A stretch of 64,000 bases of DNA from Lachnospiraceae bacterium (GTDB lineage: Bacteria > Bacillota > Clostridia > TANB77 > CAG-508), in the NCBI GenBank assembly GCA_963621995.1, contig CAVFFZ010000001.1, forward strand, positions 134,522 through 198,521, written 5' to 3'. Position 1 is the stretch's first letter. Each line of letters begins with the position of its first letter. The notes beneath the pieces were generated by a model. The model did not search any database. It was given only the letters and a program-made list of their open reading frames with translations, and was not told the DNA's origin. Below, in pieces: positions 20,631-56,297 of the stretch. The translations under genes and the position numbers were made by a program.

Positions 20631-20749
20631 GAACAAAAGAGACATGATTAATATTTTTAGACATTTTAAAAACTTTTCATGTCTCGTCTTTGTTCGGTCG
20701 CCAAATTTTATGTAATAAAATTTGTGTGGAATGTTTAGCGAAGCATTTT
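20631..20749 (+). repeat. ~118-nt hairpin-rich repeat element, copy 1, orientation A. It ends on the first base of the NUDIX stop codon.
   Basis: GAACAAAAGAGACATGATTAATATTTTTAGACATTTTAAAAACTTTTCATGTCTCGTCTTTGTTCGGTCGCCAAATTTTATGTAATAAAATTTGTGTGGAATGTTTAGCGAAGCATTTT. Other copies are at 21393, 25973 and 56180. Confidence 0.8.
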
Positions 20750-21339
20750 CACTTATATATTTGTCTTTCGTTTTCTTTATTTTCTCTAATTCTATAATTA
20801 ACAAATTCATTTAAAACAGTTAGCATTTCTCTATTAAAATTTTCCCTTTTAATATCGTCTGTTTTATTATTTTCTATTAAATATCTTATAACAGATAAAT
20901 TTTCAAAAGAAATGCTAAAATTTCCACCTTTTTCATTTTGACTTAACATCTGTTTTTCTTCATTTACTTTTTCTTTTGTCTCTCCAAAATAGAAATAAGT
21001 AACAGTTAATCTATTAATATGTTTTCCAAGCTTTCTATCATAATAATTTCTATTATAATTATCTATTCTTAAAAATGGTTCCTCTTTCAATGCAACTTTT
21101 TCTATTCCACTCTCTTCTAATATTTCTCTCTTTAAAGCTTCTATTGTTTTTTCTTCTTCTATTTTTCCTCCTGGAAGCATTAATATTCCTGCATACTTTA
21201 CTAATAGTGCCTTGCCTTGCTCATCTAATATAACTCCTCTTGTTTTTTGTACTTTTCTTTCAATTTCTTCTTCCAACAAGTGATCCTCATTATATTTTAT
21301 TATTTTCACTATTTTTCCCCGTTTCATATTTTTTATCAT
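20749..21339 (-). CDS. NUDIX hydrolase
   Basis: Nudix box GGKIEEEKTIEALKREILEESGI (GX5EX7REUXEEXGU). Confidence 0.85.
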   Translation of the reverse strand: MIKNMKRGKIVKIIKYNEDHLLEEEIERKVQKTRGVILDEQGKALLVKYAGILMLPGGKIEEEKTIEALKREILEESGIEKVALKEEPFLRIDNYNRNYYDRKLGKHINRLTVTYFYFGETKEKVNEEKQMLSQNEKGGNFSISFENLSVIRYLIENNKTDDIKRENFNREMLTVLNEFVNYRIRENKENERQIYK

Positions 21340-21392
21340 ATTATCATAATTTTATTTCTTTTTCAACAAAACTTTCTATTATTTTTTTACAT

Positions 21393-21512
21393 GAACAAAA
21401 GAGGCATGATTAATATTTTTAGACATTTTAGAAAACTTTTCATGCTTCCTCTTTGTTCAACCGCCAAATTTTATGCAATAAAATTTGGGTGGAATGTTTT
21501 GTGAAGCATTTT
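21393..21512 (+). repeat. ~118-nt repeat element, copy 2, orientation A, upstream of the NUDIX gene
   Basis: GAACAAAAGAGGCATGATTAATATTTTTAGACATTTTAGAAAACTTTTCATGCTTCCTCTTTGTTCAACCGCCAAATTTTATGCAATAAAATTTGGGTGGAATGTTTTGTGAAGCATTTT. Confidence 0.8.
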
Positions 21513-21569
21513 ATATTCTATGAAAGTTTGGAAAACTTTCATAGAATATAAAAAAGTAGACAAAATTGT

Positions 21570-22871
21570 CTACTTTTCTCTTTCTACCTCTTCTTTAACA
21601 TATTCCATAGCTTTCATATATTCAATAGAGTTTAGTTTTATATATCCCATATAATATTCTAACATATTTCCCATTAGATTACATCTCTTTATTCTATATC
21701 CATTTTGTCTATTTTCTAATATTGTGTAACTTGGTGTCATTTCTTTTAATTCTTTTAAAAACTCCTCTTTGTTTTCTACACTAGGAAATATTCTCTCTTT
21801 TCCTGATCTTTTATCATGTGCTGCTGGTCCATTTGCTCTTGATAATTCTTCTCTATAAATAGAACGAAGTTGTAATTCAAATGTATATTCAGGATTATCT
21901 AAGTATTGAAATTTTATATGATCAGCTATATACCCATTTTCTTTATCTTTTCTTTTATATCCATCTTTTGGTATTTCGACATTTAAGTCTTGTAAGATTT
22001 GAGGATTATTTAATAGGTAATTTGCAAAATCTTTTTCTACTTCGATGCAACACATATCATTATATTTTGTTAGTTCTTTAGTTGAAGCTTCTTTTCTTTT
22101 TTCTATAACTCTTTGTATTCTTTTATTTTCTGTTTTTAATTCATCTGGTACATTTGCAATAACTATTTTAAAAGCTCTTAAATCTTTAGCTTTTAAATAT
22201 TCCATTGGTTTATGTAATTTTTCTTGCATTGCTTTATCTTCTTGTACTTCTTCTACACATTCCCAATGTAACAAGTTTTTTTCCGCCTTTTTTTCTCTTA
22301 TTGTAGCTTCTTTGCCATATTGTTCCTCTATGCTATTTATTATTTTTTCATTTTTTTCTAATTCTCCGTTTTGTAGTCTTATTTTAGCAACTCTTAAACA
22401 TGCTGTTTTCATGTTGTCACTTAATTGTTTTTCTTTCGCTAAATCTTGTATTTGTTCAAAAGATTTTATATCTTTATAAAACAGATTGTTTATTTTCTCT
22501 TGTATTTCTTTGCTTCTATCTATTTCACTATTTTGATCTATTTTACTTATTATTAAATTGCATAGTCTTTGTTTTTCTTCTAAACTAATTCCTTCTATTG
22601 CATATAATTTACAAAGTCTTTCTATCTCTAATTTATCTATTTTTCCTTTTAAGCTCCTTAAAGATTTTTCTCTTCCTCTTGGAGGTTCTATTGAAACTCC
22701 TTGATACCTATCAATAAACAAGTTGACTATTTGTAAAAAAGTTTGCTCCACCCTTTGCCTGTATTCTTCATTATGTTTCAATCCTAACTGTTGCTCATAT
22801 GAAATTTGGTCGGGTGACTTATCTACTTTGTAACGACTTTTTATTGTATCTATCATTTTTAATTTTTTCAC
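21570..22871 (-). CDS. Hypothetical 433-aa protein with RelA/SpoT-like (alarmone-synthetase type nucleotidyltransferase) signature blocks at both ends of a ~200-aa charged insertion
   Basis: N-terminal PRGREKSLRSLKGKIDKL resembles the RSH Syn block GRVKxxxSIxxKxxRK. C-terminal GYIADHIKFQYLDNPEYTFELQLRS resembles GYRSLH...EIQIRT. The DxxGxR Mg-binding block is not evident. Confidence 0.35.
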   Translation of the reverse strand: MKKLKMIDTIKSRYKVDKSPDQISYEQQLGLKHNEEYRQRVEQTFLQIVNLFIDRYQGVSIEPPRGREKSLRSLKGKIDKLEIERLCKLYAIEGISLEEKQRLCNLIISKIDQNSEIDRSKEIQEKINNLFYKDIKSFEQIQDLAKEKQLSDNMKTACLRVAKIRLQNGELEKNEKIINSIEEQYGKEATIREKKAEKNLLHWECVEEVQEDKAMQEKLHKPMEYLKAKDLRAFKIVIANVPDELKTENKRIQRVIEKRKEASTKELTKYNDMCCIEVEKDFANYLLNNPQILQDLNVEIPKDGYKRKDKENGYIADHIKFQYLDNPEYTFELQLRSIYREELSRANGPAAHDKRSGKERIFPSVENKEEFLKELKEMTPSYTILENRQNGYRIKRCNLMGNMLEYYMGYIKLNSIEYMKAMEYVKEEVEREK

Positions 22872-23034
22872 CTTCCTTTCAGCTAATATATTATATAATA
22901 TTTATTCAAAAAAGTCCATACTAATCACTAAATTTATTTTACATAATTTCTACATTTTTCTTTATTTTGTAACATTTTTCTTTGTTTTCTCATAATATGT
23001 ACTATAAATCTTTTAAATTAAGGAGGCTTTAAAT

Positions 23035-23388
23035 ATGTATAATTGTAAGTACAAAAGATGCTGTTGTCAAAATAATTTTGATCAAAATGTTTTAGAAACA
23101 ATTTGTAATGATTATGGTGTTGCAGCTGATTATTATACTAAAAAAGATGATAATGCATGTAATTGCGGCTTTGAACAAGGTGAATCTGTTTTTCCTCAAA
23201 ATCCTTTACTTGCACAAAGTTACGTTCCTATTCAGACAATAGATAAAACTTTTACTCCATGTGTTGGTTTAAAAATGGGCACTATTTTTCCTGAGCTTGT
23301 TAGCCCATATTCGCCATGTCAATCTGTTGAAGAAAATGCTTTTATAAAAGCTATGAATACTATTGGAGAGGGGTGTAACAAATGTTAG
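23035..23388 (+). CDS. cotJA: Spore coat protein CotJA
   Basis: Small Cys-rich protein heading a cotJA-cotJB-cotJC arrangement. Confidence 0.6.
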   Translation: MYNCKYKRCCCQNNFDQNVLETICNDYGVAADYYTKKDDNACNCGFEQGESVFPQNPLLAQSYVPIQTIDKTFTPCVGLKMGTIFPELVSPYSPCQSVEENAFIKAMNTIGEGCNKC

Positions 23389-23879
23389 AAAATGAAAATA
23401 GAAATTGTGGTTGTGGATTCTTAAGTAATAACAACCATATGATGAATAATAATGCTAATATGATGGTAGAAAATACTGACTATCCTAACGCTATGCCTAC
23501 AACTGCTGGAATTGGTATGAATTCAAATAATAATAATTGTTGTTGTAGTCCAAGTTGCAACACTCCAAGAGTTCCTGTATATTCTTATGAATTTACTAAT
23601 ATCGGGGCTGAAGAAACTTGTGAGGAAGAACAAGAAACTAGAGAAGAAATTCTTCAAAAAATTCGTTGTTTAAAATTTGCAATCGTAGAACTTGCAGAGT
23701 ATTTAGATACACACCCAGGAGATGAAAAAGCTCTTTGTCTTCACAGAGAATATGCTACTAAACTTAACGAATTAATGGAACAATATCAAAAGGTATTTGG
23801 ACCTCTTACTATAGCTTTTCCATGTAATAAATGGAGATGGCTTGAAGGACCTTGGCCTTGGGAAAGGGGGAGTTTTTAA
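23382..23879 (+). CDS. cotJB: Spore coat protein CotJB
   Basis: Conserved CotJB C-terminal block LKFAIVELAEYLDTHPGDEKAL...EQYQKVFGPLT. Confidence 0.7.
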   Translation: MLENENRNCGCGFLSNNNHMMNNNANMMVENTDYPNAMPTTAGIGMNSNNNNCCCSPSCNTPRVPVYSYEFTNIGAEETCEEEQETREEILQKIRCLKFAIVELAEYLDTHPGDEKALCLHREYATKLNELMEQYQKVFGPLTIAFPCNKWRWLEGPWPWERGSF

Positions 23880-24490
23880 TGTGGACTTATAATAAAGTAT
23901 TACAATACCCAATAAATATAAAATGTCCAAATCCTAGACTTGCTAAATATATAATTTCTCAATATGGTGGACCTGATGGAGAGCTTGGTGCTTCTCTTCG
24001 TTATTTATCTCAAAGATTTGCTATGCCAGATGAAAATGCAAAAGCAATTTTAAATGATATAGGTACAGAAGAATTAGCTCACTTAGAAATGGTTGGAAGT
24101 TTAGTACATCAATTAACAGATGGTGTTTGCCCTGAAGAATTAGAAAAAGCTGGACTTGGTGCCTATTATACAGACCATGGGGTAGATGTTTACCCTAGTT
24201 CAGCTGCTGGTAATCCTTGGACAGCAAGCTATATAGCTGCTAAAGGCGATCCTATTGCAAACCTTCAAGAAGACTTAGCAGCAGAACAAAAAGCTAGAGC
24301 AACTTATGAAAAATTAATTGATCTTTCAAAAGATGACCCTGAAGTTTTGGATGTCCTTCGTTTCTTACGTCAAAGAGAAATTGTTCACTTCCAAAGATTC
24401 GGTGAAGCTCTTCGTGGAGTTCAAGATAAATTAGCTGAAAAGAAATTTTATATGGCTAATTGCACTAAAAAAATGTGTGATAATAACTAG
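23852..24490 (+). CDS. cotJC: Spore coat protein CotJC (manganese catalase-like)
   Basis: MWTYNKVLQYPINIKCPNPRLAKYIISQYGGPDGELGASLRYLSQR matches the CotJC N-terminus. Confidence 0.85.
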   Translation: MALGKGEFLMWTYNKVLQYPINIKCPNPRLAKYIISQYGGPDGELGASLRYLSQRFAMPDENAKAILNDIGTEELAHLEMVGSLVHQLTDGVCPEELEKAGLGAYYTDHGVDVYPSSAAGNPWTASYIAAKGDPIANLQEDLAAEQKARATYEKLIDLSKDDPEVLDVLRFLRQREIVHFQRFGEALRGVQDKLAEKKFYMANCTKKMCDNN

Positions 24491-24696
24491 CTTCTAAAAC
24501 AATATTCGAATAAATTCATATAAATTTTATTTTTTCAAGAGTTTAAACACATTTAATTTATTTTATATAAAATGGTGGAAATTTATTTTGAATTCCCACC
24601 ATTTCATTTTTTATTTTCCAATATTTATCTTATATTCTATTGCCTACTCTAATTTTACCTGAGTATATTTAAGTATTAATGTCAATTTTCACAAAT

Positions 24697-25788
24697 TTAT
24701 ACATTAAATCTAAATAACACTATATCTCCGTCTTGCATTACATATTCTTTCCCTTCTGAGCGAACTAATCCTTTTTCCTTACATGCAAGCATAGAACCTT
24801 CTCTTATTAAATCATCATAAGAAACAACCTCTGCACGTATAAAGCCTCTTTCTATGTCTGAATGGATTTTTCCTGCTGCTTGTGGTGCTTTTGTTCCTTT
24901 TTTTATTGTCCAAGCTCTTACTTCTGGCTCTCCTGCTGTTAAGAAGCTCATTAAACCTAATAAATCATAACTTGTTTTTACAACTTTGTCTAATCCAGAT
25001 TCACTAAGTCCTAATGCTTCTAGCATTTCCTTCTTATCATTACCTTCTAGGCTAGATAATTCTTCTTCTATTTTTACACAAAGTGGAATTACTTTTGCAT
25101 TTTCTGTCTTAGCAAATTCTTCTACTTCTTTTACCATTTCATCATTTTCCGCATCTTCAATTTGTTCTTCTGAAACATTTGCTATATATAAAACTGGTTT
25201 TGAAGTAAGTAAATATAAATCTTTTATTTGTTCTTTTTCTTCGTCTGTAAGTTCTACTGTTCTTGCACATTTTCCTTGTTCTAAGGCTACTTTTATTTTT
25301 TCTAATACTTCTATTTCATCTGCTACCTTTTTATCCGCTTTTAATCTTTTTTTAGCACTATCTAATCTTTTTTCTACCATTTCCATATCTGAAAAGATTA
25401 ATTCTAAATTTATTGTTTCTATATCCCTTAGTGGAGCTATACTTCCATCTACATGGACAATGTTTGAATCTTCGAAGCATCTTACCACATGTGCTATTGC
25501 ATCTACTTCTCTAATATGTGATAGGAACTTATTTCCTAACCCTTCTCCCTTACTTGCTCCCTTTACTAAACCTGCTATATCAACAAATTCTATTATTGCG
25601 TGTGTTGTTTTTTCTGGTTTATACATTTGGGTTAATTTATCTAATCTTTCATCTGGTACAGGTACAACTCCTACATTTGGTTCTATTGTACAAAATGGAT
25701 AGTTTGCACATTCTGCCCCTGCATTTGTTATGCTATTAAATAATGTTGATTTTCCTACGTTTGGAAGTCCTACTATTCCTATTTTCAT
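24697..25788 (-). CDS. ychF: Ribosome-binding ATPase YchF (Obg-family GTPase)
   Basis: MKIGIVGLPNVGKSTLFN P-loop and TGS-like C-terminus. Confidence 0.9.
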   Translation of the reverse strand: MKIGIVGLPNVGKSTLFNSITNAGAECANYPFCTIEPNVGVVPVPDERLDKLTQMYKPEKTTHAIIEFVDIAGLVKGASKGEGLGNKFLSHIREVDAIAHVVRCFEDSNIVHVDGSIAPLRDIETINLELIFSDMEMVEKRLDSAKKRLKADKKVADEIEVLEKIKVALEQGKCARTVELTDEEKEQIKDLYLLTSKPVLYIANVSEEQIEDAENDEMVKEVEEFAKTENAKVIPLCVKIEEELSSLEGNDKKEMLEALGLSESGLDKVVKTSYDLLGLMSFLTAGEPEVRAWTIKKGTKAPQAAGKIHSDIERGFIRAEVVSYDDLIREGSMLACKEKGLVRSEGKEYVMQDGDIVLFRFNV

Positions 25789-25824
25789 TTATATTTCCTT
25801 CTTTCTTATTTTTTGCTTATTTTT

Positions 25825-25900
25825 TGGAGCTACTAACCAGAATCGAACTGGTGACCTCTACCTTACCAAGGTAGCACTCTACCTACTGAGCTATAGTAGC
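25825..25900 (-). tRNA. tRNA-Thr (GGU), CCA encoded
   Basis: Reverse complement GCTACTATAGCTCAGTAGGTAGAGTGCTACCTTGGTAAGGTAGAGGTCACCAGTTCGATTCTGGTTAGTAGCTCCA; anticodon loop TTGGTAA. Confidence 0.85.
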
Positions 25901-25972
25901 AAATATTATGAGTTCCATTATTGACACTCATTTTTAAATTCTAGAAAAGTTCTCTAAACTTTTCCAGAATTT

Positions 25973-26088
25973 AAAATGCTTTGCTAAACATTCCATCTAA
26001 ATCTTATTACATAAAATTTGGCAGTCGAACAAAAACAAGGCATGAAATTTTTTAATGTCTAAAAATATTAATCATACCTCTTTTGTTC
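25973..26088 (-). repeat. ~118-nt repeat element, copy 3. It is in orientation A relative to sigH and ends exactly one base before the sigH stop codon.
   Basis: Minus strand reads GAACAAAAGAGGTATGATTAATATTTTTAGACATTAAAAAATTTCATGCCTTGTTTTTGTTCGACTGCCAAATTTTATGTAATAAGATTTAGATGGAATGTTTAGCAAAGCATTTT. Confidence 0.8.
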
Positions 26089-26766
26089 TTATGCTTCATC
26101 TCCTATACTTTTTATTGCTTTTTTTCTTATTCTTTGAATAGCATTATCTATTGACTTTACAGGAGCGTCTAACTTTTCTGCAATTTGAACATAGCTTTCT
26201 CCTTGCATATATCTATTTAATACCTTTTTTTCGAAATCACTTAAAGATTTATCTATAGCAACTTCTACTGTTTTATAATATTCTTTTTTAGTTATTGTAT
26301 CTAATGGATCTTCTATTTGATGTGAATCAAATATGTCTAATAAGTTTGAATCTTCATCATCTTCATATGCTGCTGTATTTAAAGATAAATATGAATTAAG
26401 TGGCATATGTTTTTGTCTATTAGATGACTTTATTGCTGTAATTAGTTGTCTTTCAATACATAAGTTGGCAAATGTTTTAAAAGAATTTTGCATTTCTGGA
26501 TTATAATTTTTTACTGCTTTAAATAATCCTATTAAACCTTCTTGTACTATATCTTCTTTTTCTGCACCAATCATAAAGAATTTGCTTACTTTCATATTAA
26601 CTAATTCTTTATATTTTTCAATAAGAAACTCAAGAGCAAATTTATCCCCAGACTTAATTACAGTAATTAAGTCCTCATCACTCATGTTTTTATAATTGTC
26701 TGTAACTGAAAAATATAGGTTACTCTTTTTCATATTGTTTTTTATTCCCCTTTTGTTGAATTTCAT
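26089..26766 (-). CDS. sigH: Sporulation sigma factor SigH (Spo0H)
   Basis: Sigma-70 region 2 (EDIVQEGLIGLFKAVKNYNP), FKTFANLCIERQLITAIKSSNRQKH block and region 4 HTH (ESYVQIAEKLDAPVKSIDNAIQRIRKK). Confidence 0.8.
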   Translation of the reverse strand: MKFNKRGIKNNMKKSNLYFSVTDNYKNMSDEDLITVIKSGDKFALEFLIEKYKELVNMKVSKFFMIGAEKEDIVQEGLIGLFKAVKNYNPEMQNSFKTFANLCIERQLITAIKSSNRQKHMPLNSYLSLNTAAYEDDEDSNLLDIFDSHQIEDPLDTITKKEYYKTVEVAIDKSLSDFEKKVLNRYMQGESYVQIAEKLDAPVKSIDNAIQRIRKKAIKSIGDEA

Positions 26767-26890
26767 TATTTAGCTGTATTATATGGCAGTTTTTCTTAGA
26801 ATGTCAAGAGTTTTTTGACTTTTTATTGCTATTTTTTTGTTATTATATTATAATTATAAAAAAATTTTTAATTTAAAAGGAGTTTTACAC

Positions 26891-28597: not shown

Positions 28598-28624
28598 AAT
28601 TCAGAAATGGAGCAATTAAATTAT

Positions 28625-28672
28625 TAGAGGGTGGGTCGATTTAGTTTAACCAAAGTCTAAATTGACCCGCCC
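28625..28672. terminator. Bidirectional terminator hairpin AGGGTGGGTCGATTTAG...CTAAATTGACCCGCCCT between convergent genes
   Basis: 17-bp stem with two G-U pairs. Confidence 0.6.
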
Positions 28673-28714
28673 TTAATAGTTTAATCTTACACGTTCCTAA
28701 TAATATTTTTTAAT

Positions 28715-28960
28715 TTAGTCTCTTACTTTATATTCTATTTTTTCCATAAATGGAAACATTTCATATATTCTTTTTTTAGTAAGCATTTCCATTACTGGAT
28801 GAGGATTTTTTTCGTGAATTGATAAAAGTTTTTGTGTATAGCAATTATCTGCTGTTTTAAATAACATATATCTATTCCTTACATAAGTATAATATAGCTC
28901 ATACCCCTCATCTAATTCTTTTTCAAATCTTTCAAATGTATATTTATCTTTTCCGTCCAT
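28715..28960 (-). CDS. Hypothetical 81-aa protein
   Basis: ORF track only. Confidence 0.35.
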   Translation of the reverse strand: MDGKDKYTFERFEKELDEGYELYYTYVRNRYMLFKTADNCYTQKLLSIHEKNPHPVMEMLTKKRIYEMFPFMEKIEYKVRD

Positions 28961-28973
28961 AATTTCTTCCTTT

Positions 28974-29837: not shown

Positions 29838-29908
29838 TTTATTCCTCTTTGTTTTTCAATTATATTTAGCATGTATACAATATCTACTCTAATATTCATT
29901 CTTGCATG

Positions 29909-32125: not shown

Positions 32126-32650
32126 CTATGCATAAAAACCGTATAAAATTTCTTCTTCATTTACATTATTTTCTTTCATGTAATCATCACATCTTTTTTC
32201 TAGTAATTTAAAATTGCAACATCTATCTTGTAAGTCTTTGTTGGCATGTCCATTTGAAATTATATAATATAAATTTCTTGCTCTATTTTGAATTCGTAAA
32301 GTATTTAAATCAATCCAATTCATTTGATTTATAATCATATTTTTATATTTTATATCCTCTATTTTATCTATTTCTATTTTTTCTAAATAACTACTTGGTA
32401 TAGGTATCATATTATTTAAATTTATTCCGCCTAGTCTACCATTATCTATTTTTAAAAAGTCTTGCATGTTTTTCATTATTAAATGTTTCTTTTTTGGTGA
32501 TGTTAAAGGTGCAAAAAAATTCTTACCATTTACATTTAGTATAACTCCTATAAATGGTCTATTTTCCTTTTCATTTTCTATGTATGGTATTTTAGGTTCA
32601 TAATAATGTAAATAATTACAATATTCTATATCTGCTTTGTATAAATTCAT
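32126..32650 (-). CDS. toxN: ToxN/AbiQ-family endoribonuclease toxin (type III TA toxin fold); the likely start is MNLYKADIEY
   Basis: PFIGVILNVNGKNFFAPLTSPKKKH, LGGINLNNMIPI and CNFKLLEKRCDDY align with ToxN (AFIGIVLEIQGHKYLAPLTSPKKWH; LGLINLKFMIPI; CDFAVLEEKYRDY). Confidence 0.8.
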   Translation of the reverse strand: MNLYKADIEYCNYLHYYEPKIPYIENEKENRPFIGVILNVNGKNFFAPLTSPKKKHLIMKNMQDFLKIDNGRLGGINLNNMIPIPSSYLEKIEIDKIEDIKYKNMIINQMNWIDLNTLRIQNRARNLYYIISNGHANKDLQDRCCNFKLLEKRCDDYMKENNVNEEEILYGFYA

Positions 32651-32749
32651 ATTACAATGCATAATTAAAACATTTAAAATACTTTAATTATTTGCTCCTT
32701 TCCTTTTTATTTTTTACTTTCTAGGCATTATTAATAAAAGTCAAAATCT

Positions 32750-40286: not shown

Positions 40287-40408
40287 TTATAACAATTTCT
40301 GCCATATTTATCTTCAACAGAAAGTTATCATACTATGATAACTTTCCTAGAATATAAAAAGAATTTCTATACACTATCATTTGTATAGAAATTCTTTTCT
40401 TTTATTTA

Positions 40409-47876: not shown

Positions 47877-47895
47877 TTTATCGCCTTCCTTCTTT

Positions 47896-48615: not shown

Positions 48616-48710
48616 TGTAGTAGATAAAATACTCCAAAAGGACTTTATGCACCAAAAGGAAATCTTCCTAATGGGTATTGACTGTTTTTTTGCTCCGTCC
48701 CCAAAAACAG

Positions 48711-51700
48711 TTACTCTATACTTTTTAAACTTTCTATCATGTCTATTTTCTTTAATGAGAAATATGTTACCACATTTACCATTAATGTAAATACTATTGT
48801 AATTATAATAGCATATAAATAGCTAATTGGCTTTATTTCTTTTCCAAATCTTATTACATTTATTTCACACGTTTTTATTATAAACATATTTAACAAATAT
48901 CCGCCCAATAAACCAAGTATTATTCCTATTACTGTTAATATCACTGTTTCTCTTGTTACATAATCATATACTTCTTTATCGTAAAATCCAAGTACTTTTA
49001 TTGTAGCAAGTTCTCTTATTCTTTCGCTAATATTTACATTTGATAGGTTATATAATACTACAAATGCAAGTAATCCTGCTGATATTATTAAAATTACTAC
49101 TACATAATTTAATGAGTTCATCATGTCTTTCATTAAACTTTCCATATTTGAGTTTAATGCTACTGCATTTACATTTTCATCTTTTAGCAATTCTTTTGCC
49201 ATTTCTTTTTCTTGTTCTTCATCTTTTACACTATTTTGAACATATAGTACATTTGTATTGTATTCTCCATATGTCTCTTCATATAGTTCTTTTGGCATAT
49301 ATACATAATGATAAATGTAGTTTTCTACAATATTAGAAATTTCAAATTCTTTTTGGTTATTATCGTTATCTTTTAATGTGATTTTTTCTCCTTGTTTTAC
49401 ATTTAGAAGTTGCGCAACTTTATCTGTAATAGCTATTTTTCCTTCTTCTAATTGTATTTTTTCTTTTTCCTTTGTATCTATTAATTGAATTACATTTTCT
49501 ATTTTCTCGTCTTTTGGAACTATAATTTGTATGTCTTCTTCTTTTTCTCCATTTACTAAAGTTCCTGATGTCATATATGTTTCTACTACCTTACTTACTT
49601 CTTCTTTTTTCTCTAGTCTTTGTATAAACTCTTGCACGCTTTCGTTTTGAGTACTATTTTTCAAACTAATTTGCATATCATAATGATATATTTTTTGATA
49701 TTGGCTTGGTATTATTGCAGATATTGCGTCTTTTATTCCAAAGCCTGTTAAAATAAGTGCTGTACAGCCTGCAATTCCTATAATTGTCATTAAAAATCTT
49801 TTCTTGTAACGGAATATATTTCGAACTGTTACTTTTTGGTTAAATTTTAAATGTTTCCATATAAATGGTATTTTTTCTAAAAGAACTCTCTTTCCTGGGT
49901 TTGGTGCTTTTGGTCTCATAAGTTCTGAAGGAGTTTCCCCTAAAGAGCTTAAAACTGTATATAATGTAGCTCCTATTATACATATACTTGCAAGTCCAAG
50001 TCCTAATATAGCATAATACCAATTAAATTTAATTACTAAATCTGGCAATGAGTACATCATATTATACATCATTAATATTATTCTTGGAAGTAGCTGAAAT
50101 CCTACTAACATTCCAAAAACTCCACCTACAATACATGCTATTCCTGCATATAACAAATATTTCATTGCTATTTGCATTTTGTTATATCCTAGTGCTTTTA
50201 ATGTACCTATTTGAACTCTTTGCTCTTCTACCATTCTTGTCATAGATGTTAAAGAAATTAAAGTTGCTATAACAAAGAACACTATTGGAAATACTTTTCC
50301 TAAATTTTCTATACTTTTACTATCTTGTACATAGTTGCTATAACCTGTATTTGACTCCCTGTCTAAAATATACCATGTTGGATGATCTATTTTATCTATT
50401 TCTTCTTTTGCATCTGAAATTTTTTTCTCTGCTTCTTTTATTTTGTCATTATACTCATTTCTATTTTTATTTAATTCTTCTTTTCCTTCTTCTAATTCTT
50501 TTTTTGAAGTATTTATTTTTTGCTGTGCAGTTTTAAATTCAGCATTTGCCTGCTCCCTTGAATTACTTAATGTTTCTTCTTGTTTAGCTAATTTCTCTTT
50601 TGCTTGTTTTAGTTCTTCTGTTCCTTCTTGTAATTTTGTATTTATTGTACTTATTCCATTTTCTATTTGGTTTATTCCCTTTTCTACTTGTTTCTTATTT
50701 ACATTTAAATTTTCTATTGTTTCCTCTAAACTAGCTTTTTGTATTTGTAAATTTGTTATTTGCTCTTGTGTTAAAGTTGTATTTTTTAAGCTTTCTAATA
50801 TATTTTGATATTGCTTTTCTAGTGTGCTAATATTTGTATTTAATTCATTTAAATTATTTTGCATATCTTCTTTTTGAGCGTTTAAGTTTTCAATTTGCTT
50901 GTTTGCTTCTTCTTCCTGTTTTGGCATATTTTGTTCTTGAATGGCAATTTCATTTTTTGCCTCTTCTAATTGTTTTTCTGCAGTTTGAAATTTACTTTCA
51001 GCTTCAGCCTTTTCATTATTTAAAGTATTTTGTGCAGATTCTATTTCATTTTCTCCTCTTGTTATCTCATTTTCTGCATCTGTTAATTTTTGTTCTGCAG
51101 TTTGTTTTTCTTCTTCTAGCTCTTCTTCTGCTTCTTGCAGTTTTTCTTCTGCCTCTTTTCTTACCTCTTCATATCTTGCATTTTGCCTTTGTTCTTTTAT
51201 TTTTTCCACTTCATCTTTTGCTTTCTGAATATAATTTTTGTATTCTTGTGAAGAAGTTTCCATTTTGCTTGCATTTTTTAATGTAATATAAATTTGTGTG
51301 TATACCTCACTTTCAAAGCTTTCTTTTGGCAAATATAAATTATAGCTTACCTTTCCAGAACCTAATTTAGAAGAATCTCTTTCCCTTGAAATATACAAAG
51401 GACTTTCCATAGTTCCAACAATTGTAATCTCTTTTTCTTTTATTATACTATCTTCATCTGTTTCAATTGTTAAAGTGTCTCCTATATTTTTATTTTTTAA
51501 TTTACAAAATGTTTCCTCTACTAAACATTCATTAGCATTTTGTGGCATTCTTCCTTCAAGTAAAGTTACTATATTTACACTATCTAATGACAATACTTTT
51601 GTTACAATTTCAGTATCTTCATAGTTTAATAAAACATCTTCACTATATTCACCATAAACATTTTCTATTTTATCTATTTTCTTTAAAGCTTTTATATCTT

Positions 51701-51911
51701 CATCAGTTAAACCTAATGTTGAAATTACCTCTATATCATATACATTATTTTCGTCAAATCTTTTATCTAATGTATAAATCATATCCGGGCTTGCTGCTCT
51801 AATTCCTGCAAAAAAGCCCACACCTAAAAAAGCCATTAATAAAATGGATATAAAACGTTTATATGTGTTTTTTATTTCTTTTAAGCTATCTTTTATTAGT
51901 GCCTTTTTCAT
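48711..51911 (-). CDS. FtsX-like ABC transporter permease with a very long extracytoplasmic coiled-coil domain (1066 aa)
   Basis: Two FtsX permease modules flank a ~350-aa heptad-rich segment. It is paired with the ATPase gene upstream. Confidence 0.7.
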   Translation of the reverse strand: MKKALIKDSLKEIKNTYKRFISILLMAFLGVGFFAGIRAASPDMIYTLDKRFDENNVYDIEVISTLGLTDEDIKALKKIDKIENVYGEYSEDVLLNYEDTEIVTKVLSLDSVNIVTLLEGRMPQNANECLVEETFCKLKNKNIGDTLTIETDEDSIIKEKEITIVGTMESPLYISRERDSSKLGSGKVSYNLYLPKESFESEVYTQIYITLKNASKMETSSQEYKNYIQKAKDEVEKIKEQRQNARYEEVRKEAEEKLQEAEEELEEEKQTAEQKLTDAENEITRGENEIESAQNTLNNEKAEAESKFQTAEKQLEEAKNEIAIQEQNMPKQEEEANKQIENLNAQKEDMQNNLNELNTNISTLEKQYQNILESLKNTTLTQEQITNLQIQKASLEETIENLNVNKKQVEKGINQIENGISTINTKLQEGTEELKQAKEKLAKQEETLSNSREQANAEFKTAQQKINTSKKELEEGKEELNKNRNEYNDKIKEAEKKISDAKEEIDKIDHPTWYILDRESNTGYSNYVQDSKSIENLGKVFPIVFFVIATLISLTSMTRMVEEQRVQIGTLKALGYNKMQIAMKYLLYAGIACIVGGVFGMLVGFQLLPRIILMMYNMMYSLPDLVIKFNWYYAILGLGLASICIIGATLYTVLSSLGETPSELMRPKAPNPGKRVLLEKIPFIWKHLKFNQKVTVRNIFRYKKRFLMTIIGIAGCTALILTGFGIKDAISAIIPSQYQKIYHYDMQISLKNSTQNESVQEFIQRLEKKEEVSKVVETYMTSGTLVNGEKEEDIQIIVPKDEKIENVIQLIDTKEKEKIQLEEGKIAITDKVAQLLNVKQGEKITLKDNDNNQKEFEISNIVENYIYHYVYMPKELYEETYGEYNTNVLYVQNSVKDEEQEKEMAKELLKDENVNAVALNSNMESLMKDMMNSLNYVVVILIISAGLLAFVVLYNLSNVNISERIRELATIKVLGFYDKEVYDYVTRETVILTVIGIILGLLGGYLLNMFIIKTCEINVIRFGKEIKPISYLYAIIITIVFTLMVNVVTYFSLKKIDMIESLKSIE

Positions 51912-51957
51912 ATTTAATCACTTTCCTCTTTCTTGTTATAAATCTAGTTTTAAAAAA

Positions 51958-52665
51958 TTACCATTCAATTTCTTCTATAGGTGTTGGATTTTCATTTATT
52001 ATAATATTTTCAGCTTTTCCATTTTTAAACTGAATTACTTTGTCTGCCATTGGAGCTATAGCCGAATTGTGTGTAATAATTATAACTGTCATATTTTCTT
52101 TTCTACAAGTATTTTGTAATAACTCTAATATTTGTTTTCCTGTTTTATAATCTAATGCACCTGTTGGTTCGTCACATAAAAGTAGCTTAGGATTTTTAGC
52201 TATTGCTCTTGCTATTGCAACTCTTTGCTGCTCTCCACCAGATAATTGTGAAGGAAAGTTTCTAACTCTATCTTTTAACCCTACCTTTTTCATTATTGTT
52301 TCTGGATTTAAAGAATCTTTACAAATTTGTGTTGCAAGTTCTACGTTTTCTATTGCTGTTAAATTTTGAACTAAATTGTAAAATTGAAATACAAAGCCTA
52401 TATCTTCTCTTCTATACTTTACAAGTTCTTTTTTCTTTAATGTTGAAACGTTTTTTCCATCTACAATTACATCTCCTGAAGTTGCTGTATCCATTCCCCC
52501 TAAAATATTCAAACAAGTAGTTTTACCTGCTCCAGAGGGACCTACTATAACTACTAATTCGCCTTTTTCTATTGTAAAATTTGTGTTGTCTAATGCTTTA
52601 ATAGTAACTTCACCCATTTTATATTCTTTCTTTACATTTTTAAACTCTATATATGACATTTTCAT
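51958..52665 (-). CDS. ABC transporter ATP-binding protein (MacB/LolD-like)
   Basis: [16 protein letters not shown] Walker [15 protein letters not shown] signature, [12 protein letters not shown] Walker B. Confidence 0.9.
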
Positions 52666-52678
52666 TTTCCTTTCTCAG

Positions 52679-52707
52679 GACATTTGGGGACGGGTCACTT
52701 TTGTCCT
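52679..52707. repeat. 29-nt GC-rich element (ACATTTGGGGACGGGTCACTTTTGTCC)
   Basis: Reverse complement matches the elements at 18851 and 55962. Confidence 0.55.
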
Positions 52708-53054
52708 TTACATAATTTTTGTATTTAATTCATTTTCTATTTTTATATCATATTTTTAATCTTTTTACTATATTTTTTACAGATATTTCATATTTTATAG
52801 TAAAACACAATAATAAATGTTTTACAAATGTCATATTTATATTCTACAGAAGTAGAAATATTGTATTTTTTTTGTAAATTTTACAATATTTCTATTTTTA
52901 TATGTTATAATAAAAATATGTTACGATTCAATAATAATTTTTAGTGTCCGTTTAAATAAGATATAAAGCTTTATCATTTTTGGACATATTTTTCTTTAAT
53001 GAGCTGTAACAAAAATAGAGATAAAATTTTTATATTATTTTAAGGAGGATTATT

Positions 53055-53738
53055 ATGATTAGTGAAGGAAATCAAGAACCAATCTCTCAAGAAGTAAAAA
53101 ATGACTTTTTACCAAAAACTTTCTTTTGGATGTTTTTAGGATTATTAGGCACTGCTATTGTAGCATGGTATACTTACTCTTCTGGGTTATTTGTAAGCAT
53201 ATTAACTGGTGGTAGCTTTGGAGCTTTATTAATTGCAGAAGTTGTAGTCGTTTTAGTATTTTCACTTTTATTTAGAAAACTTTCGCCTACTGTTGCAGGC
53301 ATTCTATTTTTTGTTTATGCTGCTATTAATGGTGTTAGTTTATCTACAATATTTGTAGTATTTGAGCTAAACTCTGTTGTATTACTATTTGTAGCATCAG
53401 CTTTATTATTTGGAGCATTTGCTTTGTATGGCTACAAAACATCAAAAGACTTAAGTAATTGGCGTACATTACTTTTTGGAACTCTAATTGCTGGTTTAAT
53501 TGTAAGTATCATTAATTTATTTATTGGTAATACTATGTTAGATATTATTCTAGACTGGGTTATACTTTTAGTATTCTTTGGAATTACAACATATGATATG
53601 AACAAAATTAAACAATTATATTTGGATGAAAATCTAGATAAAAATAAATTGCATATATATGGTGCAATGGAACTATACTTAGACTTTATAAATATATTTT
53701 TACGTATCCTTTCTATATTTGGAAAGAGAAGAGATTAA
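53055..53738 (+). CDS. Bax inhibitor-1/YccA family membrane protein
   Basis: Seven-TM profile, ~225 aa, conserved N-terminal region. Confidence 0.7.
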   Translation: MISEGNQEPISQEVKNDFLPKTFFWMFLGLLGTAIVAWYTYSSGLFVSILTGGSFGALLIAEVVVVLVFSLLFRKLSPTVAGILFFVYAAINGVSLSTIFVVFELNSVVLLFVASALLFGAFALYGYKTSKDLSNWRTLLFGTLIAGLIVSIINLFIGNTMLDIILDWVILLVFFGITTYDMNKIKQLYLDENLDKNKLHIYGAMELYLDFINIFLRILSIFGKRRD

Positions 53739-53794
53739 ATTTTATAAATTAGAAAAATCACTAGCTTGTTGTAACATCAAAAATGTTTTAATTA

Positions 53795-53832
53795 AAGGGA
53801 CGTCCCTAATCGATTAGGGATGTCCTTTTTTT
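53795..53832. terminator. Near-perfect palindrome AAAGGGACGTCCCTAATCG|ATTAGGGATGTCCTTTTT, a bidirectional terminator of the GGGACG family
   Basis: Direct inspection; A-run and T-run on either side. Confidence 0.6.
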
Positions 53833-53850
53833 AAAAAATATTTCTTACTT

Positions 53851-54420
53851 TGTTTACAACGTAATGGCTTCCACCTTTATTTTGTACATCTTCTACCATA
53901 CTGACTATCATTAACTGCCTATCACTATTTTCATCTGCTATAAATGCATTAAACCAGCCTATTTCTCTTCCTTCTTTAATAGCTTGCTAAAGTTGTTCTG
54001 TTATATAAAGGTTTTGCTTCATCATTTAATAACTCATCCCATTTATTTACTGTTATTCCTAAACTAAAATCATTTGAGTTAAATGTTGGTGTGCTTACTA
54101 ATGCTAAAATTTCTCCTGTTTTAGCATCTATTGTAGAAACCCTTACTTTGTAATTATCATTTAAACTTGGAAAAATAAGATTTGATGACCATTTAATTTT
54201 GTATGTTCCCTCTTTCTTTTCTAAATTGGCTGTATTAGAAAAACTAATTTCTCCTACAACAGTGCTCATTACTGTTGTATACACTATTTCTGCGTTATTC
54301 TGCTATTTAGTTGTTTTTGCAATATTTATATCTATAGAACTTAATTCTATTCCCTCATATATATTTTTATTTCTATTTATAAAATTTTCTTTTTCTGTAT
54401 TGTTCAAGACCAATGAATAC
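53851..54420 (-). pseudogene. Penicillin-binding protein remnant. Pieces of the dimerisation/transpeptidase N-terminal region and the PBP C-terminus lie in different frames; most of the ~2 kb gene is missing.
   Basis: NKWDELLNDEAKPLYNRTTLASY (pre-SxxK PBP block) followed by a stop. In another frame GWFNAFIADENSDRQLMIVSMVEDVQNKGGSHYVVNKVRNIF resembles a PBP C-terminus. Confidence 0.5.
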
Positions 54421-54423
54421 ATT

Positions 54424-55650
54424 TTAAATTCTTTTTCCAATATAGCTATTTTTCTTTCCTCTTTTTACAACTATATATGTATTTTCTATAAACATAGTGT
54501 CGTCTACAACCGTATTTACATCTGTTATTTTTTCTCCATTTATTGATACAGCATTATTTGACACAAATTCTCTTGCTTCTCTTTTACTTGATGTAGCACC
54601 TAATGTTACTAATAAATCTAAAATATTTTGATTTGCTTCTACCTCTTTTATGTCTTCATTTCCAATTAGTTCTTCAATATCTTTTTTGCTTAAATCAGCA
54701 AATTTATTGTTAAATAGATGATCTGCTAAATTTACTGCTTTTTCATATTCTTCTTTTCCATGCAAGAAAGTAATAATTTCTCTCGCCAATGCTTTGTGTG
54801 CCTCTCTTAATTCTGGATGTTCATTGTTTTTTCTTTCATATTCTTCAATTTCTTCTTTAGAAAGGAATGTATAAATTTTCAGGTAATCTATTACCATGCA
54901 ATCTTCAACATTTGTAAAGAATTGATATAGTTTGTAACTTGAGGTTTTTTCTTTATCTAACCATAGTGCATTTCCTTCACTTTTTCCAAATTTCTTTCCT
55001 TGTGAATCTGTAACAAGTGGCATTGTAAATGCATATACTTCATCTCCTGTAGCTTTTCTAATTAAATCTATGCCAGCTGTAATATTTCCCCATTGGTCAG
55101 AACCTGCACATTGCATATCCACACCTTTATTTTCATGTAGCCATTTAAAATCTAATGCTTGTAAAATCATATATGAAAATTCTGTATATGTAATTCCACT
55201 ATCTAATCTTCTTCTAATTATATCTTTATCTAACATGTAATTTATATTGAAAAATTTTCCATAGTCTCTTAAAAAATCTATTACATTTATATCTTTGTAC
55301 CAATCATTGTTATTTACAACTTCAAACCCAAATATCTTTTCAACTTGTGCTTTTAAGCTTTCAAAATTGTGTCTTACCTCTTCTTTAGAAATCATTGCTC
55401 TTTCTGTAGTAGGACGTGGATCTCCTATCATTCCTGTTCCACCACCTACTAATAAAATTGGATGATGTCCTGCTTCTTTTAATCTTTTTGAAATTAGAAA
55501 GCTTGATAAATGTCCTACATGAAGGCTATCTGCTGTTGGATCTGTTCCAATATAGAAAGTAAGTCCTCCTTTATTTAATTTTTCTTCTAATTCTGGACTT
55601 GATATGTCTTTTATAAGTCCTCTCCATTTTAAATCTTCAACTAATGTCAT
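54424..55650 (-). CDS. tyrS: Tyrosyl-tRNA synthetase
   Basis: HVGH (HIGH) motif in PTADSLHVGHL, KFGKS (KMSKS) motif, S4 C-terminal domain. Confidence 0.95.
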   Translation of the reverse strand: MTLVEDLKWRGLIKDISSPELEEKLNKGGLTFYIGTDPTADSLHVGHLSSFLISKRLKEAGHHPILLVGGGTGMIGDPRPTTERAMISKEEVRHNFESLKAQVEKIFGFEVVNNNDWYKDINVIDFLRDYGKFFNINYMLDKDIIRRRLDSGITYTEFSYMILQALDFKWLHENKGVDMQCAGSDQWGNITAGIDLIRKATGDEVYAFTMPLVTDSQGKKFGKSEGNALWLDKEKTSSYKLYQFFTNVEDCMVIDYLKIYTFLSKEEIEEYERKNNEHPELREAHKALAREIITFLHGKEEYEKAVNLADHLFNNKFADLSKKDIEELIGNEDIKEVEANQNILDLLVTLGATSSKREAREFVSNNAVSINGEKITDVNTVVDDTMFIENTYIVVKRGKKNSYIGKRI

Positions 55651-55654
55651 TTTA

Positions 55655-55945
55655 TTTCCTCCTTTTAACTTTAAACAAAAAAGCCAAATGCATCCTGTTA
55701 AAGGACGATTTGACTCGTGGTACCACCTTTATTTACTTATTTTTAATAAGCCTTATTTAGCTGTTCGTAGCTTAAACGTTAATTACTATAAGAATTGTAA
55801 TTCATAATTTTATATGCTAATAGTTTGCACCAACCACTATTTCTCTAAAGTTACTATAAAATTACTACTAGGTTTCTTTTTAAAGTGCAATTAAATTAAT
55901 TATGTTTGTATTATACTATATATTTTTTTGCATTGCAAGTAAATG
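55655..55945 (-). ncRNA. T-box riboswitch leader with a Tyr (UAC) specifier and its promoter (TTGCAA-17-TATAAT) upstream of tyrS
   Basis: AAAGGTGGTACCACGAGTCAAATCGTCC T-box sequence, an overlapping terminator/antiterminator, a stem I AGAGA/AGTGG region, and GCTACGAAC as the candidate specifier. Confidence 0.75.
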
Positions 55946-55961
55946 ATTATTTTTTTATGTA

Positions 55962-55990
55962 AAGGACAAAAGTGCCCCGTCCCCATGGTA
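55962..55990. repeat. 29-nt GC-rich element (GGACAAAAGTGCCCCGTCCCCATGGTATT)
   Basis: Matches 18851 and 52679. Confidence 0.55.
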
Positions 55991-56179
55991 TTTTTTCCCA
56001 TTTTTCCTTCTTCATTTATTTATATTAGTTATTTTGGCTAAACACAAAAAAATAACACTTTCTTCAAGTGTTGTTCGTTAATCATTGCTTTCTTCACAAT
56101 GTCCGTTTCCATTCTTTTTTTATAATAACACAATTTAATACATTTGTCAAAAAAGAATTTTAAGAAATTTTAATATTAA

Positions 56180-56297
56180 AAATCTTTGCTAAACATTCCA
56201 CACGAATTTTATTTCATAAAATTTGGTGGTTGAACAAAGACGAGGCATGAAAAGTTTTCTAAAATGTCTAAAAATATCAATCATGCCTCTTTTGTTC
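56180..56297 (-). repeat. ~118-nt repeat element, copy 4. It is in orientation A relative to the gene at 56300-57811 and ends 2 nt before that gene's stop codon.
   Basis: Minus strand reads GAACAAAAGAGGCATGATTGATATTTTTAGACATTTTAGAAAACTTTTCATGCCTCGTCTTTGTTCAACCACCAAATTTTATGAAATAAAATTCGTGTGGAATGTTTAGCAAAGATTT. Confidence 0.8.

Follow-up and report, generated by a model that had tools for sequence, protein, structure and literature searches.

The 64,000-nt stretch of DNA analysed here, hereafter the window, holds four copies (c1 to c4) of a repeat whose full unit is AT-rich and non-coding, contains no ORF, measures about 145-160 nt and is built of four modules, A-B-C-D. Module A is a 66-nt hairpin in which a GAACAA/TTGTTC outer stem encloses an inner stem that varies and contains G+C, closed by a ~30-nt loop, while B is a short AT hairpin, C a linker and D a long AT-rich hairpin. 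All four copies were recovered where a first-pass annotation had placed them, c1 and c2 on the plus strand and c3 and c4 on the minus strand, with a mean column identity of 88% and nhmmer E-values of 1e-37 to 1e-41. That annotation described a three-hairpin unit of ~118 nt; c2 and c3 each have a fourth hairpin, D, lying outside the coordinates it gave.

Copy c1 (20631-20749) is of type A-B-C, without D (A 20631-20695, B/C 20699-20749), and lies between a convergent thioesterase gene (TAG 20614-20616) on one side and a NUDIX gene (TGA 20749-20751) on the other. Copy c2 (21393-21552) is a full unit, with A at 21393-21458, B at 21461-21496, a small C hairpin at ~21497-21512 and D at 21510-21552. 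It is antisense to the minus-strand genes on its flanks, and its D end abuts the T-tract of an intrinsic terminator found by the terminator scan (21550-21579, minus strand), which is the native terminator of the upstream 399/433-aa gene. Copy c3 (25932-26088), also a full unit, comprises A at 26027-26088, a degenerate B at 25989-26024 and D at 25933-25975; its D end abuts the T-run of a terminator-like hairpin read from the sequence on the plus strand (25908-25935, ATGAGT...ACTCAT followed by TTTTT). Copy c4 (56176-56297; A 56232-56297, B 56194-56229) is again of type A-B-C without D, follows the gene of a 503-aa WG-repeat protein and is itself followed directly by what reads, by eye, as a putative tyrS promoter. 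A sensitive search of the window yielded no further full copy and a single relic, the 3' arm of a D hairpin (AACTTTCCTAGAATATAAAAA, 40336-40360, plus strand; modD E = 0.002), after which come an A-tract, a hairpin and a T-tract that form a bidirectional terminator, with convergent genes on either side.

In a search of the whole window against Rfam only three tRNAs reached the gathering threshold, leaving the element unmatched, and at E up to 10 the surroundings of c1 and c2 gave chance microRNA-like matches only. The consensus had zero blastn matches among plasmid and phage records, and no specific account of a repeat like this from Clostridia turned up in the literature searched. The earlier remark that the element is undescribed stands as far as these searches reach. 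No convincing promoter was seen by eye inside the element, a promoter scan giving weak matches within D only, and ToxI-like tandem repeats upstream of a ToxN gene were looked for and not found.

The window copies belong to a large family: nhmmer gave 184-275 matches (at least 184 family members) in 816 kb from 23 species of uncultured Clostridia, all represented by fragmented MAGs, and these are counts for the fetched loci, not genome totals. The architectures ABD, AB and A were found 47, 34 and 27 times, and GAACAA/TTGTTC, at the foot of A, is the sole invariant motif of the unit; both the counts of A-containing forms and the invariance of this outer stem are biased, because the pattern used to bait the loci has parts of hairpin A built into it. 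Copies occur singly, truncated, or in head-to-tail arrays of up to three units, which mix subfamilies while keeping all units in the same direction, and one 8-kb locus can contain as many as five matches. Unbaited copies are truncated from both ends, and LINE-like reverse transcription, with its one-sided truncation, was rejected on this ground. Identity is higher within genomes (means 0.70-0.93, top pairs up to 0.99) than between them (mean 0.72), loop sequences are conserved within subfamilies, and the family amplifies as lineage-specific subfamilies. The small third hairpin (AATGTTT-agcg-AAGCATT) had been listed as common to the four window copies; within the family it is restricted to the window-type subfamily.

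Stem covariation had been claimed from the four window copies. Among these only c1 shows it, as a two-sided change from G-C to A-T; the variants of c2 and c3 are G-T wobbles. It becomes convincing only once 97 units from other genomes are included. In these units 97.4% of cells are paired and 20 of 34 pairs show two-sided changes; none of 500 shuffles scored as high, and slid controls were 39-58% paired. The G-T wobbles favour folding of the GAAC... strand (42 vs 19 A-C mismatches; MFE was also used), and this better-folding strand is antisense to the targeted terminator or upstream gene in most copies. The outer ends of the unit, AGAACAAAAG... and ...CCTATAATA, are not complementary to each other, meaning that outer terminal inverted repeats are absent; the inverted repeats lie inside modules A, B and D, and the end hairpins D and A are dissimilar.

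Nearly all oriented elements (125/126) are intergenic. Their D end faces a gene 3' end in 83 cases vs 26, which is about three quarters of oriented copies, and 28 copies lie in convergent spacers vs 8 in divergent ones. Some are found in 5' leaders in either orientation, for instance between the promoter and the RBS at locus L061 and after a T-box terminator at L104. Replication and transcription are inseparable as causes of the orientation, because the GC skew of a locus tracks its gene strand (correlation 0.95), and the polarity of whichever terminator is targeted accounts for most of the bias. Within convergent and divergent spacers together a residual orientation bias of 31:5 was noted, which is only a hint.

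The main result concerns the position of the element relative to intrinsic terminators. Read as D'-C'-B'-A', the element has its D end immediately following the T-tract of a pre-existing terminator, with the junction between A and T. Six or more T occur in the 9 nt abutting D' at 59 of 69 D ends, and 49 of the 69 combine this with a hairpin at least as strong as -6 kcal/mol; the same feature was found at 14% of control T-rich intergenic sites (293/2137) and at one A end in 107. When D ends were defined by regular expression, a terminator was adjacent in 72 of 98, giving about 71-73% of D-ended copies overall, and the terminator scan placed terminators ending exactly at the element boundary in the window and at L045 and L052. 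The element supplies no T-tract of its own: the T6 tract of the terminator by c2 is the same in the empty sites of L117 and L119, and the T-run at the L019/L069 site is not longer in the filled than in the empty locus. The flank after D begins with T followed by A5-7, and the target is T5-8 followed by A^T, behind a hairpin. In 34 cases the D end is directly followed by the GAAC of the next unit, and in such arrays the next unit follows the T-rich tail (TTTTGTTC) of the previous A hairpin. At offsets 1-3, the flank can pair with the D stem in 58-60 of 86 copies, and an internal C occurs only where the flank begins with G. Placement behind terminators could in part result from selection, such insertions being harmless; the zero-distance junctions argue for targeting, short of proof. 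Because the dominant arrangement puts the element behind an intact terminator, copies should rarely be transcribed from the upstream gene.

Comparison of orthologous sites shows that the element is gained and lost. Copy c2 is missing from the orthologous spacer in L117, L119 and L114, and further pairs of filled and empty sites are L061 vs L112, L019 vs L069 and L032 vs L112; at the site of c3, the related species L027 has the A hairpin alone at the same spot as the full unit of the window. No target-site duplication was found in the pairs for c2, L019/L069, L061/L112 and L032/L112. On the A side, the base before the element is A in 90% of copies, with farther positions at background composition. 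Of the two readings first offered for the repeat, a site-selective MITE is apt insofar as it is non-coding, multi-copy, present or absent at orthologous sites and highly non-random in placement; on the other hand, it has neither outer terminal inverted repeats nor a target-site duplication, and the site selected is a terminator T-tract, not a stop codon.

The contacts with stop codons reported for three window copies are nevertheless real. The TAA of sigH (26089-26091) directly abuts c3, the TAA of the 503-aa protein gene (56300-56302) ends the reading frame 2 nt from c4, and the TGA of the NUDIX gene overlaps the last base of c1; the SigH identity itself is supported (NCBIfam 246 bits vs a cut-off of 208). 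In other genomes the A end is at most 8 nt from a same-sense stop in 11 copies against 3.5 expected (z = 4.4). Such contact involves only the A end and only the minority of copies that are sense to the gene, and is probably a side effect of terminator-directed placement. It would arise on antisense entry into a terminator where the A-tract and the stop codon adjoin, as at c3 (GCATAA^AAAAA-hairpin), and presumably also because the A/T-rich A end closes any reading frame that is truncated. Judged from its sequence, hairpin A appears to be built like a bidirectional terminator, with an A-rich run, a G+C stem (GAGGCATGA/TCATGCCTC) and a tail that reads TTTTGTTC on the reverse and GTCTTTGTTC on the forward strand; its loop of ~30 nt, unusual in an intrinsic terminator, is beyond the 3-8 nt of the terminator scan, which does not call it. 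Where the native terminator was lost, as at c1, hairpin A probably acts as one: in the relatives L114, L117 and L119 that position is taken by a native bidirectional terminator, and the NUDIX C-terminus is different.

We consider it probable that these repeats are a non-autonomous, non-coding, multi-hairpin mobile element of uncultured gut Clostridia that targets terminator tails. Integration would recognise a hairpin plus T-tract, probably aided by pairing of the target T-tract with the internal A-run of 3-5 nt after D'. In about two thirds of copies the D stem runs on into the flank for 3-4 bp. The enzyme responsible would act in trans and leave no duplication, our best guess, unproven, being a single-strand DNA (HUH-type) transposase. 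The orientation of the element would follow the polarity of the targeted terminator. Further units land directly behind the A hairpin tail, giving rise to head-to-tail arrays of mixed subfamilies. The wobble bias toward the GAAC... strand is at odds with a simple model that takes the terminator-sense strand as the active single one. More tentatively, this may be a new kind of miniature element, whose internal A-run pairs with the T-tract of a single-stranded terminator, which integrates at A^T with no duplication and whose own terminator-like hairpin becomes the next landing pad. It is likewise possible, and we put it no higher, that such a "terminator train" is moved by an enzyme or RNA route not yet linked to this type of targeting, neither group II machinery nor the resident RAYT.

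A mobilising gene was looked for and not found. No transposase-like gene lies next to an element in 113 loci; the genes between neighbouring elements, including those flanked by inverted copies (L062, L082), encode DprA, sortase, SpoIVB, thioredoxin and others, with no transposase among them, and clustering of all 816 locus ORFs returned only orthologous housekeeping sets rather than a multi-copy gene. Neither tnpA or tnpB nor a full-length IS with matching ends was found in the 816 kb of loci or in the window. The sole HUH gene of the window (58997-59746, 2.7 kb from c4) encodes a 249-aa RAYT-like Y1_Tnp protein, whose best NCBIfam match is REP-associated tyrosine transposase (67 bits, under the curated cut-off of 80 bits). 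It is rather improbable that this enzyme moves the repeat as a REP/BIME-type sequence of its own genome. The gene is near c4, its conservation between queA and tgt, across species sharing only about 50% identity, is as expected of a domesticated single-copy RAYT, and A-B-D shares intergenic hairpins, mosaic arrays and the lack of duplication with REP/BIME sequences. However, the inverted copies on either side of the gene belong to a different hairpin, of GGGACGRCC core (window, L060, L121, L124), by the usual rule its cognate REPs, the fetched RAYT loci are without any A, B or D module, and A-B-D is AT-rich, four times the length of a REP and uniform in direction within arrays. That the element is a retro-mobile passenger using class C group II intron machinery, or another reverse transcriptase, would account for integration behind terminators but seems still more doubtful. 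The site and orientation rule is the same as that of class C introns, and the A-run after D' could pair with the T-tract as EBS does with IBS, yet no group II intron or other ribozyme model matched, even at E up to 10, a 5' end of the group II type (GUGYG) is absent when read by eye, and 145 nt is far below the size needed for reverse splicing. Furthermore, the 55 window ORFs scanned have no Pfam reverse-transcriptase match, the fetched loci hold no multi-copy protein family, and modules are lost from either end, not from one end only.

The other reading first offered, a 3'-UTR RNA element, amounts to a selected cis-acting RNA at gene 3' ends, acting in stability or as a back-up terminator, with its structure kept for mRNA function. 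Pairing conserved through compensatory changes, the tolerance of G-U wobbles on one strand, the sense position of c3 and c4 between a stop codon and the next signal, the place of c1 at the site of a native terminator in relatives and the A-run/stem/T-run layout of hairpin A would all suit it. We nevertheless hold it to be unlikely: about three quarters of oriented copies turn the D end toward the upstream gene and an intact terminator stands before 71-73% of D ends, which should leave most copies outside mRNA, and the better-folding strand is mostly antisense to the upstream gene. Copies in 5' leaders in both orientations (L061, L104) and orthologous genes that manage without the element point the same way, and the conserved subfamily loops, together with near-identical copies within genomes, indicate copying rather than convergent selection. 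As a description of the family, the 3'-UTR proposal is thus mostly unsupported, save that the A hairpin may serve as a terminator, as at c1. That the copies are small trans-acting RNA genes is very improbable. Their multi-hairpin fold is stable and conserved, but they have no conserved upstream promoter (flanks are at background composition beyond -1) and no terminator after D in the forward direction, occur at high density with common truncated forms and arrays, and are absent at orthologous sites.

Several known systems resemble a mobile element directed to terminator tails. Class C group II introns enter directly behind Rho-independent terminators, with a preference for the lagging-strand template, as stated in PMC8919778 with reference to Robart et al. 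2007. The likeness lies in insertion just past the terminator T-tract, in the orientation of the terminator, so that genes stay intact and the insert is rarely transcribed; our element differs in its ~145 nt, without an Rfam ribozyme match or a reverse transcriptase ORF, and in bringing along a terminator-like hairpin from which arrays are seeded. In IS200, the hairpin at the left end is a Rho-independent terminator that is bidirectional (PMC4513863). IS200/IS605 elements and their miniature derivatives (PATEs) likewise have no terminal inverted repeats, make no duplication, bear hairpins at both ends and insert 3' of a short target. Theirs is a fixed tetra- or pentanucleotide, against a hairpin plus T-tract for the element, whose D and A hairpins also differ from each other; the loci and window provided no tnpA or tnpB with matching ends. 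REP/BIME/REPIN sequences also form intergenic hairpins at gene 3' ends in mosaic module arrays, with compensatory changes, no target duplication and a RAYT-like gene in the same genome. A REP, though, is a G+C-rich imperfect palindrome of 20-40 nt with a 5' tetranucleotide, unlike the ~145-nt AT-rich element; the hairpins beside the RAYT-like gene are others, with a GC core, and REP arrays alternate where ours are uniformly oriented.

Pneumococcal BOX (boxA-boxB-boxC) and bcr1 of the Bacillus cereus group are non-coding intergenic repeats of 100-200 nt with separable hairpin modules and stable RNA folds, and their module content varies between copies as it does here. bcr1 duplicates a TTTAT target, and the ends of BOX are inverted repeats; we know of no sequence similarity between either and the element, nor of a description of either at terminator tails. 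Correia elements of Neisseria can supply terminators, but have 26-bp inverted-repeat ends and duplicate TA, neither of which is seen here. The closest parallel to landing on stop codons is provided by mycobacterial MIRUs, which overlap flanking stop and start codons; these lie inside operons and are translated, unlike the element.

Small interspersed hairpin repeats are common in bacteria, and their choice of site is rarely understood. Here a 145-nt element with neither ribozyme nor gene shows the precise placement just behind terminators that had until now been documented for class C group II introns. Should true targeting lie behind it, terminator tails would offer a general safe harbour that unrelated mobile elements recognise. 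The element is also a testable handle on the recognition of single-stranded hairpin-plus-T-tract DNA. Mobile DNA may also replace or multiply terminators, c1 being an example. On the practical side, repeats of this kind break metagenome assemblies of abundant uncultured gut Clostridia, and their strong covariation means that they could be mistaken for structured regulatory RNA.

The GAAC/GTTC motifs and the A^T junction also brought integron attC sites, Helitron ends and the target of IS91 (GTTC/CTTG) into consideration; the motifs do not fit attC R-boxes.

The four repeat copies in the window lie where the first-pass annotation had placed them (c1 at 20631-20749 and c2 at 21393-21512 on the plus strand, c3 at 25973-26088 and c4 at 56180-56297 on the minus strand), with a mean column identity of 88% in their alignment. 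A profile built from the four copies yielded E-values of 1e-37 to 1e-41 at those sites and nowhere else in the window, and a more sensitive profile search of the window added only a relic at 40336-40360. Copies c2 and c3 run on into a fourth, long AT-rich hairpin that had been omitted and reach 21393-21552 and 25932-26088 with it; c4 spans 56176-56297. The unit comprises four modules: A, a 66-nt hairpin (GAACAAAAG, inner stem, loop of ~30 nt, inner stem, CGTCTTTGTTC); B, a short AT hairpin; C, a linker, which in units of the window-type subfamily alone folds into one more small hairpin; and D, TATATTATAGGAAGTTC...GAACTTTCCTATAATATA.

Applied to a single genome of each species, a pattern describing hairpin A matched at least 111 eight-kb blocks; those listed come from 23 MAGs of uncultured Clostridia or Clostridium of human, Hadza and mouse gut, plus one chance match in a Saccharibacteria MAG. 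Profile searches gave 184-275 hits in the 816 kb of listed blocks. Among these loci the architectures are ABD (47), AB (34), A alone (27) and D alone (15), and head-to-tail arrays of at most three units also occur, single arrays in some cases combining subfamilies with wholly different A inner stems (GAGGCATGA, GTGGGCTGA, GCGGAC, CGGAAAGCC). Identity among units averages 0.70-0.93 within single genomes, where the closest pairs reach 0.99, and is lower between genomes, with a mean of 0.72; this indicates lineage-specific amplification. The window's own copies, whose identity is no more than 0.85, are comparatively old. The family appears to be previously undescribed, although small non-autonomous hairpin repeats are known as a general kind; what is unusual about it is a sharply defined preference for terminator tails and a self-seeding mode of array formation.

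Comparison with orthologous loci in related species, reached via the NUDIX protein, showed that the element is gained and lost. Copy c2 is absent from these loci, where the site reads terminator-TTTTTT-AATAG..., while the window has the terminator and TTTTTT followed by the 160-nt element and ATGTAAAA...; the NUDIX promoter downstream is intact in every one of these loci. At the c1 site the relatives have a native bidirectional terminator between convergent genes, in place of which the window has the element, and the C-terminus of the window's NUDIX protein is altered there. At the c3 position, hairpin A stands alone in one related species, and the fetched loci yielded three more filled/empty pairs. 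No target duplication was seen in any filled/empty pair compared, nor are there inverted repeats at the outer ends of the element.

Nearly all oriented elements (125 of 126) are intergenic, with the D end towards a gene 3' end in 83 cases versus 26; in co-directional spacers they lie antisense to the orientation first proposed (46 versus 14), and convergent spacers hold 28 copies, divergent ones 8. With the element read from its D side, at least six T occur in the 9 nt abutting D' in 59 of 69 cases, and at 49 of these 69 D ends the T tail lies no more than 6 nt from the end of a hairpin at least as stable as -6 kcal/mol. An independent regex definition of D ends gave T tail plus hairpin in 72 of 98, while such a hairpin accompanies 14% of 2137 other T-rich intergenic sites and only 1 of 107 A ends. 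A terminator scan called terminators whose ends coincide with the element boundary, both in the window and in loci L045 and L052. The T-tract is native and not carried in by the element, since it is T6 in both the filled and the empty c2 site and no longer in the filled than in the empty member of another pair (L019/L069). The suggestion of a site-selective mobile element is supported, except that the site is a terminator and not a stop codon.

The flank after ...CCTATAATA begins with T, then five to seven A, and the base before GAAC is A in 90% of copies, with composition further out at background; this puts the junction where the T-tract ends, with A on one side and T on the other. Arrays form behind the element's own A hairpin: in 34 cases the GAAC of another unit follows D directly, so that in the opposite reading direction the new unit lies directly behind the TTTTGTTC tail of the preceding A hairpin. 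In roughly two thirds of copies, pairing of the D stem goes on for 3-4 bp beyond the element, into the flank, and a rare internal C at the D-stem/flank position occurs only where the flank starts with G, suggesting that the target tail pairs with an internal run of the element. In locus L104 (1700-2080), an element separates the terminator of a T-box-like leader from the start codon of a probable thrS gene and is oriented such that hairpin A most resembles a terminator; expression would then rely on read-through, unless A is a poor terminator.

The contacts with stop codons are real: c3 abuts the sigH TAA, 2 nt separate c4 from the TAA of the gene for a 503-aa protein, and c1 overlaps the NUDIX TGA by one base, its last. 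In the other genomes, a stop codon of the same sense is found no more than 8 nt from the A end 11 times against 3.5 expected, and no more than 3 nt away 8 times against 1.6, with no such excess in the same count at D ends. These contacts follow from the terminator targeting rule: entry from the antisense side, at a terminator whose A-tract starts at a stop codon, would leave the element's far end on that codon, as exemplified by c3 (GCATAA^AAAAA-ATGAGT...ACTCAT). Some ORFs enter the element and are stopped by its in-frame TAA after 21 nt; reading frames that the element truncates are thus also closed by its A/T-rich A end. Orientation is that of the majority in c1 and c2 and of the minority in c3 and c4, the gene-rich, G-rich strand of the window being the minus strand. 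Locus GC skew predicts element orientation 98 to 27, but the skew itself correlates 0.95 with gene strand. The polarity of the terminators that are targeted accounts for most of the orientation bias; what is left, 31:5 in convergent and divergent spacers, hints that one strand is preferred, but is confounded.

The pairing of the element is conserved. Over 97 distinct units (window and loci), standard pairs fill 97.4% of cells and 20 of 34 pairs have changed on both sides, including one at the foot of B (G-C in 44, C-G in 37) and one inside B (A-U in 54, U-A in 42); none of 500 shuffles reached the observed values, and slid controls were 39-58% paired. The outer stem of A is invariant, which is partly ascertainment because the scan pattern fixed it, though flank copies outside the pattern also retain it. 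Compensatory changes had been claimed among the four window copies themselves; a true two-sided change is found only in c1, the variants of c2 and c3 being G-T wobbles. Read on the strand written GAAC..., the 97-unit alignment has 42 G-T wobbles against 19 A-C mismatches, and this strand also folds more stably. In most copies, however, it is the antisense strand of the terminator that is targeted; the asymmetry is at odds with the orientation data, and no model we considered accounts for it. The proposal of a 3'-UTR RNA element is largely unsupported, the usual placement being behind an intact terminator.

The element comes and goes at terminator tails without duplication, keeps its pairing and seeds arrays behind its own A hairpin; we infer that it would be moved in trans by an enzyme recognising a hairpin plus a T-tract. 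Class C group II introns follow the same site rule, with a documented lagging-template bias (PMC8919778), but the element has no ribozyme features. The lack of inverted-repeat ends and of duplication, together with terminal hairpins, points to single-strand (HUH-type) transposition; for the terminal hairpins, the IS200 left-end hairpin, a bidirectional terminator (PMC4513863), offers a comparison. The window does encode a Y1 (HUH) protein of 249 aa (58997-59746, minus strand; Pfam Y1_Tnp, E = 6e-14) between queA and tgt, whose best NCBIfam match is REP-associated tyrosine transposase (67 bits, cut-off 80). The inverted GC-core hairpins on either side of its gene (TGTGGYAAAAAAGRCYGKCCCTTTTGCCACA, 58966-58994 and 59806-59832) belong to another family, so the protein is probably not the mobiliser; no other candidate was seen among the window ORFs or the genes of the fetched loci. 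Relatives whose protein identity is only about 50% keep the queA-Y1-tgt order, and in each of them GGGACGRCC-core hairpins of its own flank the gene; the gene with its hairpins looks like a domesticated RAYT/REP system. To our knowledge, such systems are rarely discussed in Clostridia.

For the host, an element behind an intact terminator, the common arrangement, should be largely silent. At c1 the native terminator is gone, and c4 lies between a stop codon and the putative promoter that follows. Nothing else that resembles a terminator is left at these two sites, and hairpin A probably ends transcription there, although its long loop speaks for caution.

Other repeats are also present. A RAYT-type hairpin doublet lies downstream of ileS (62337-62405), and G+C-core palindromic hairpins of the types GGGACGGTCC / GCCCCGTCCCC occur at 18381, 18416, 18495, 18851, 36137, 53797 and 55974, in a genome of 27% G+C (26.8% in the window). 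Related hairpins in other MAGs, e.g. AGGATTTGGGGACGGCCCCAAAATCCT, sometimes form the terminator beside a D end (L097, L055). A further interspersed repeat, AATGTCGCGTTGGGGACGTTTCCTTTGGGACATT, was found in L032 (about 2100-2190), L112 (about 1830-1880), L036, L029 and L044, in the last as a long inverted pair, and not in the window.

Among the genes, CotJ and SigH represent sporulation and help to assign the window to uncultured gut Clostridia; around ychF its sequence is identical to that of a MAG contig (GCA_963656305.1). The gene at 32126-32662 (minus strand; Pfam E = 3e-47) encodes the ToxN-family toxin of a type III toxin-antitoxin system; Tandem Repeats Finder detected no clear ToxI-like repeat array in its 700-nt upstream spacer. 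Positions 351-11248 are likely an integrated island, with a serine-recombinase fragment (351-749), a RiPP-like cluster at 1563-7967 (a YcaO protein, two radical SAM proteins and a PEP-utilising enzyme) and, adjoining two tRNA genes (11063-11248), a tyrosine integrase (9201-10424). In the region 17938-18765, the thymidylate synthase ORF has only 110 aa, matching just the C-terminal third of its family, and the DHFR ORF has 122 aa; the GC-core hairpins at 18381, 18416 and 18495 lie between them and, apparently, inside thyA, which suggests disruption by repeat insertion, or a frameshift.
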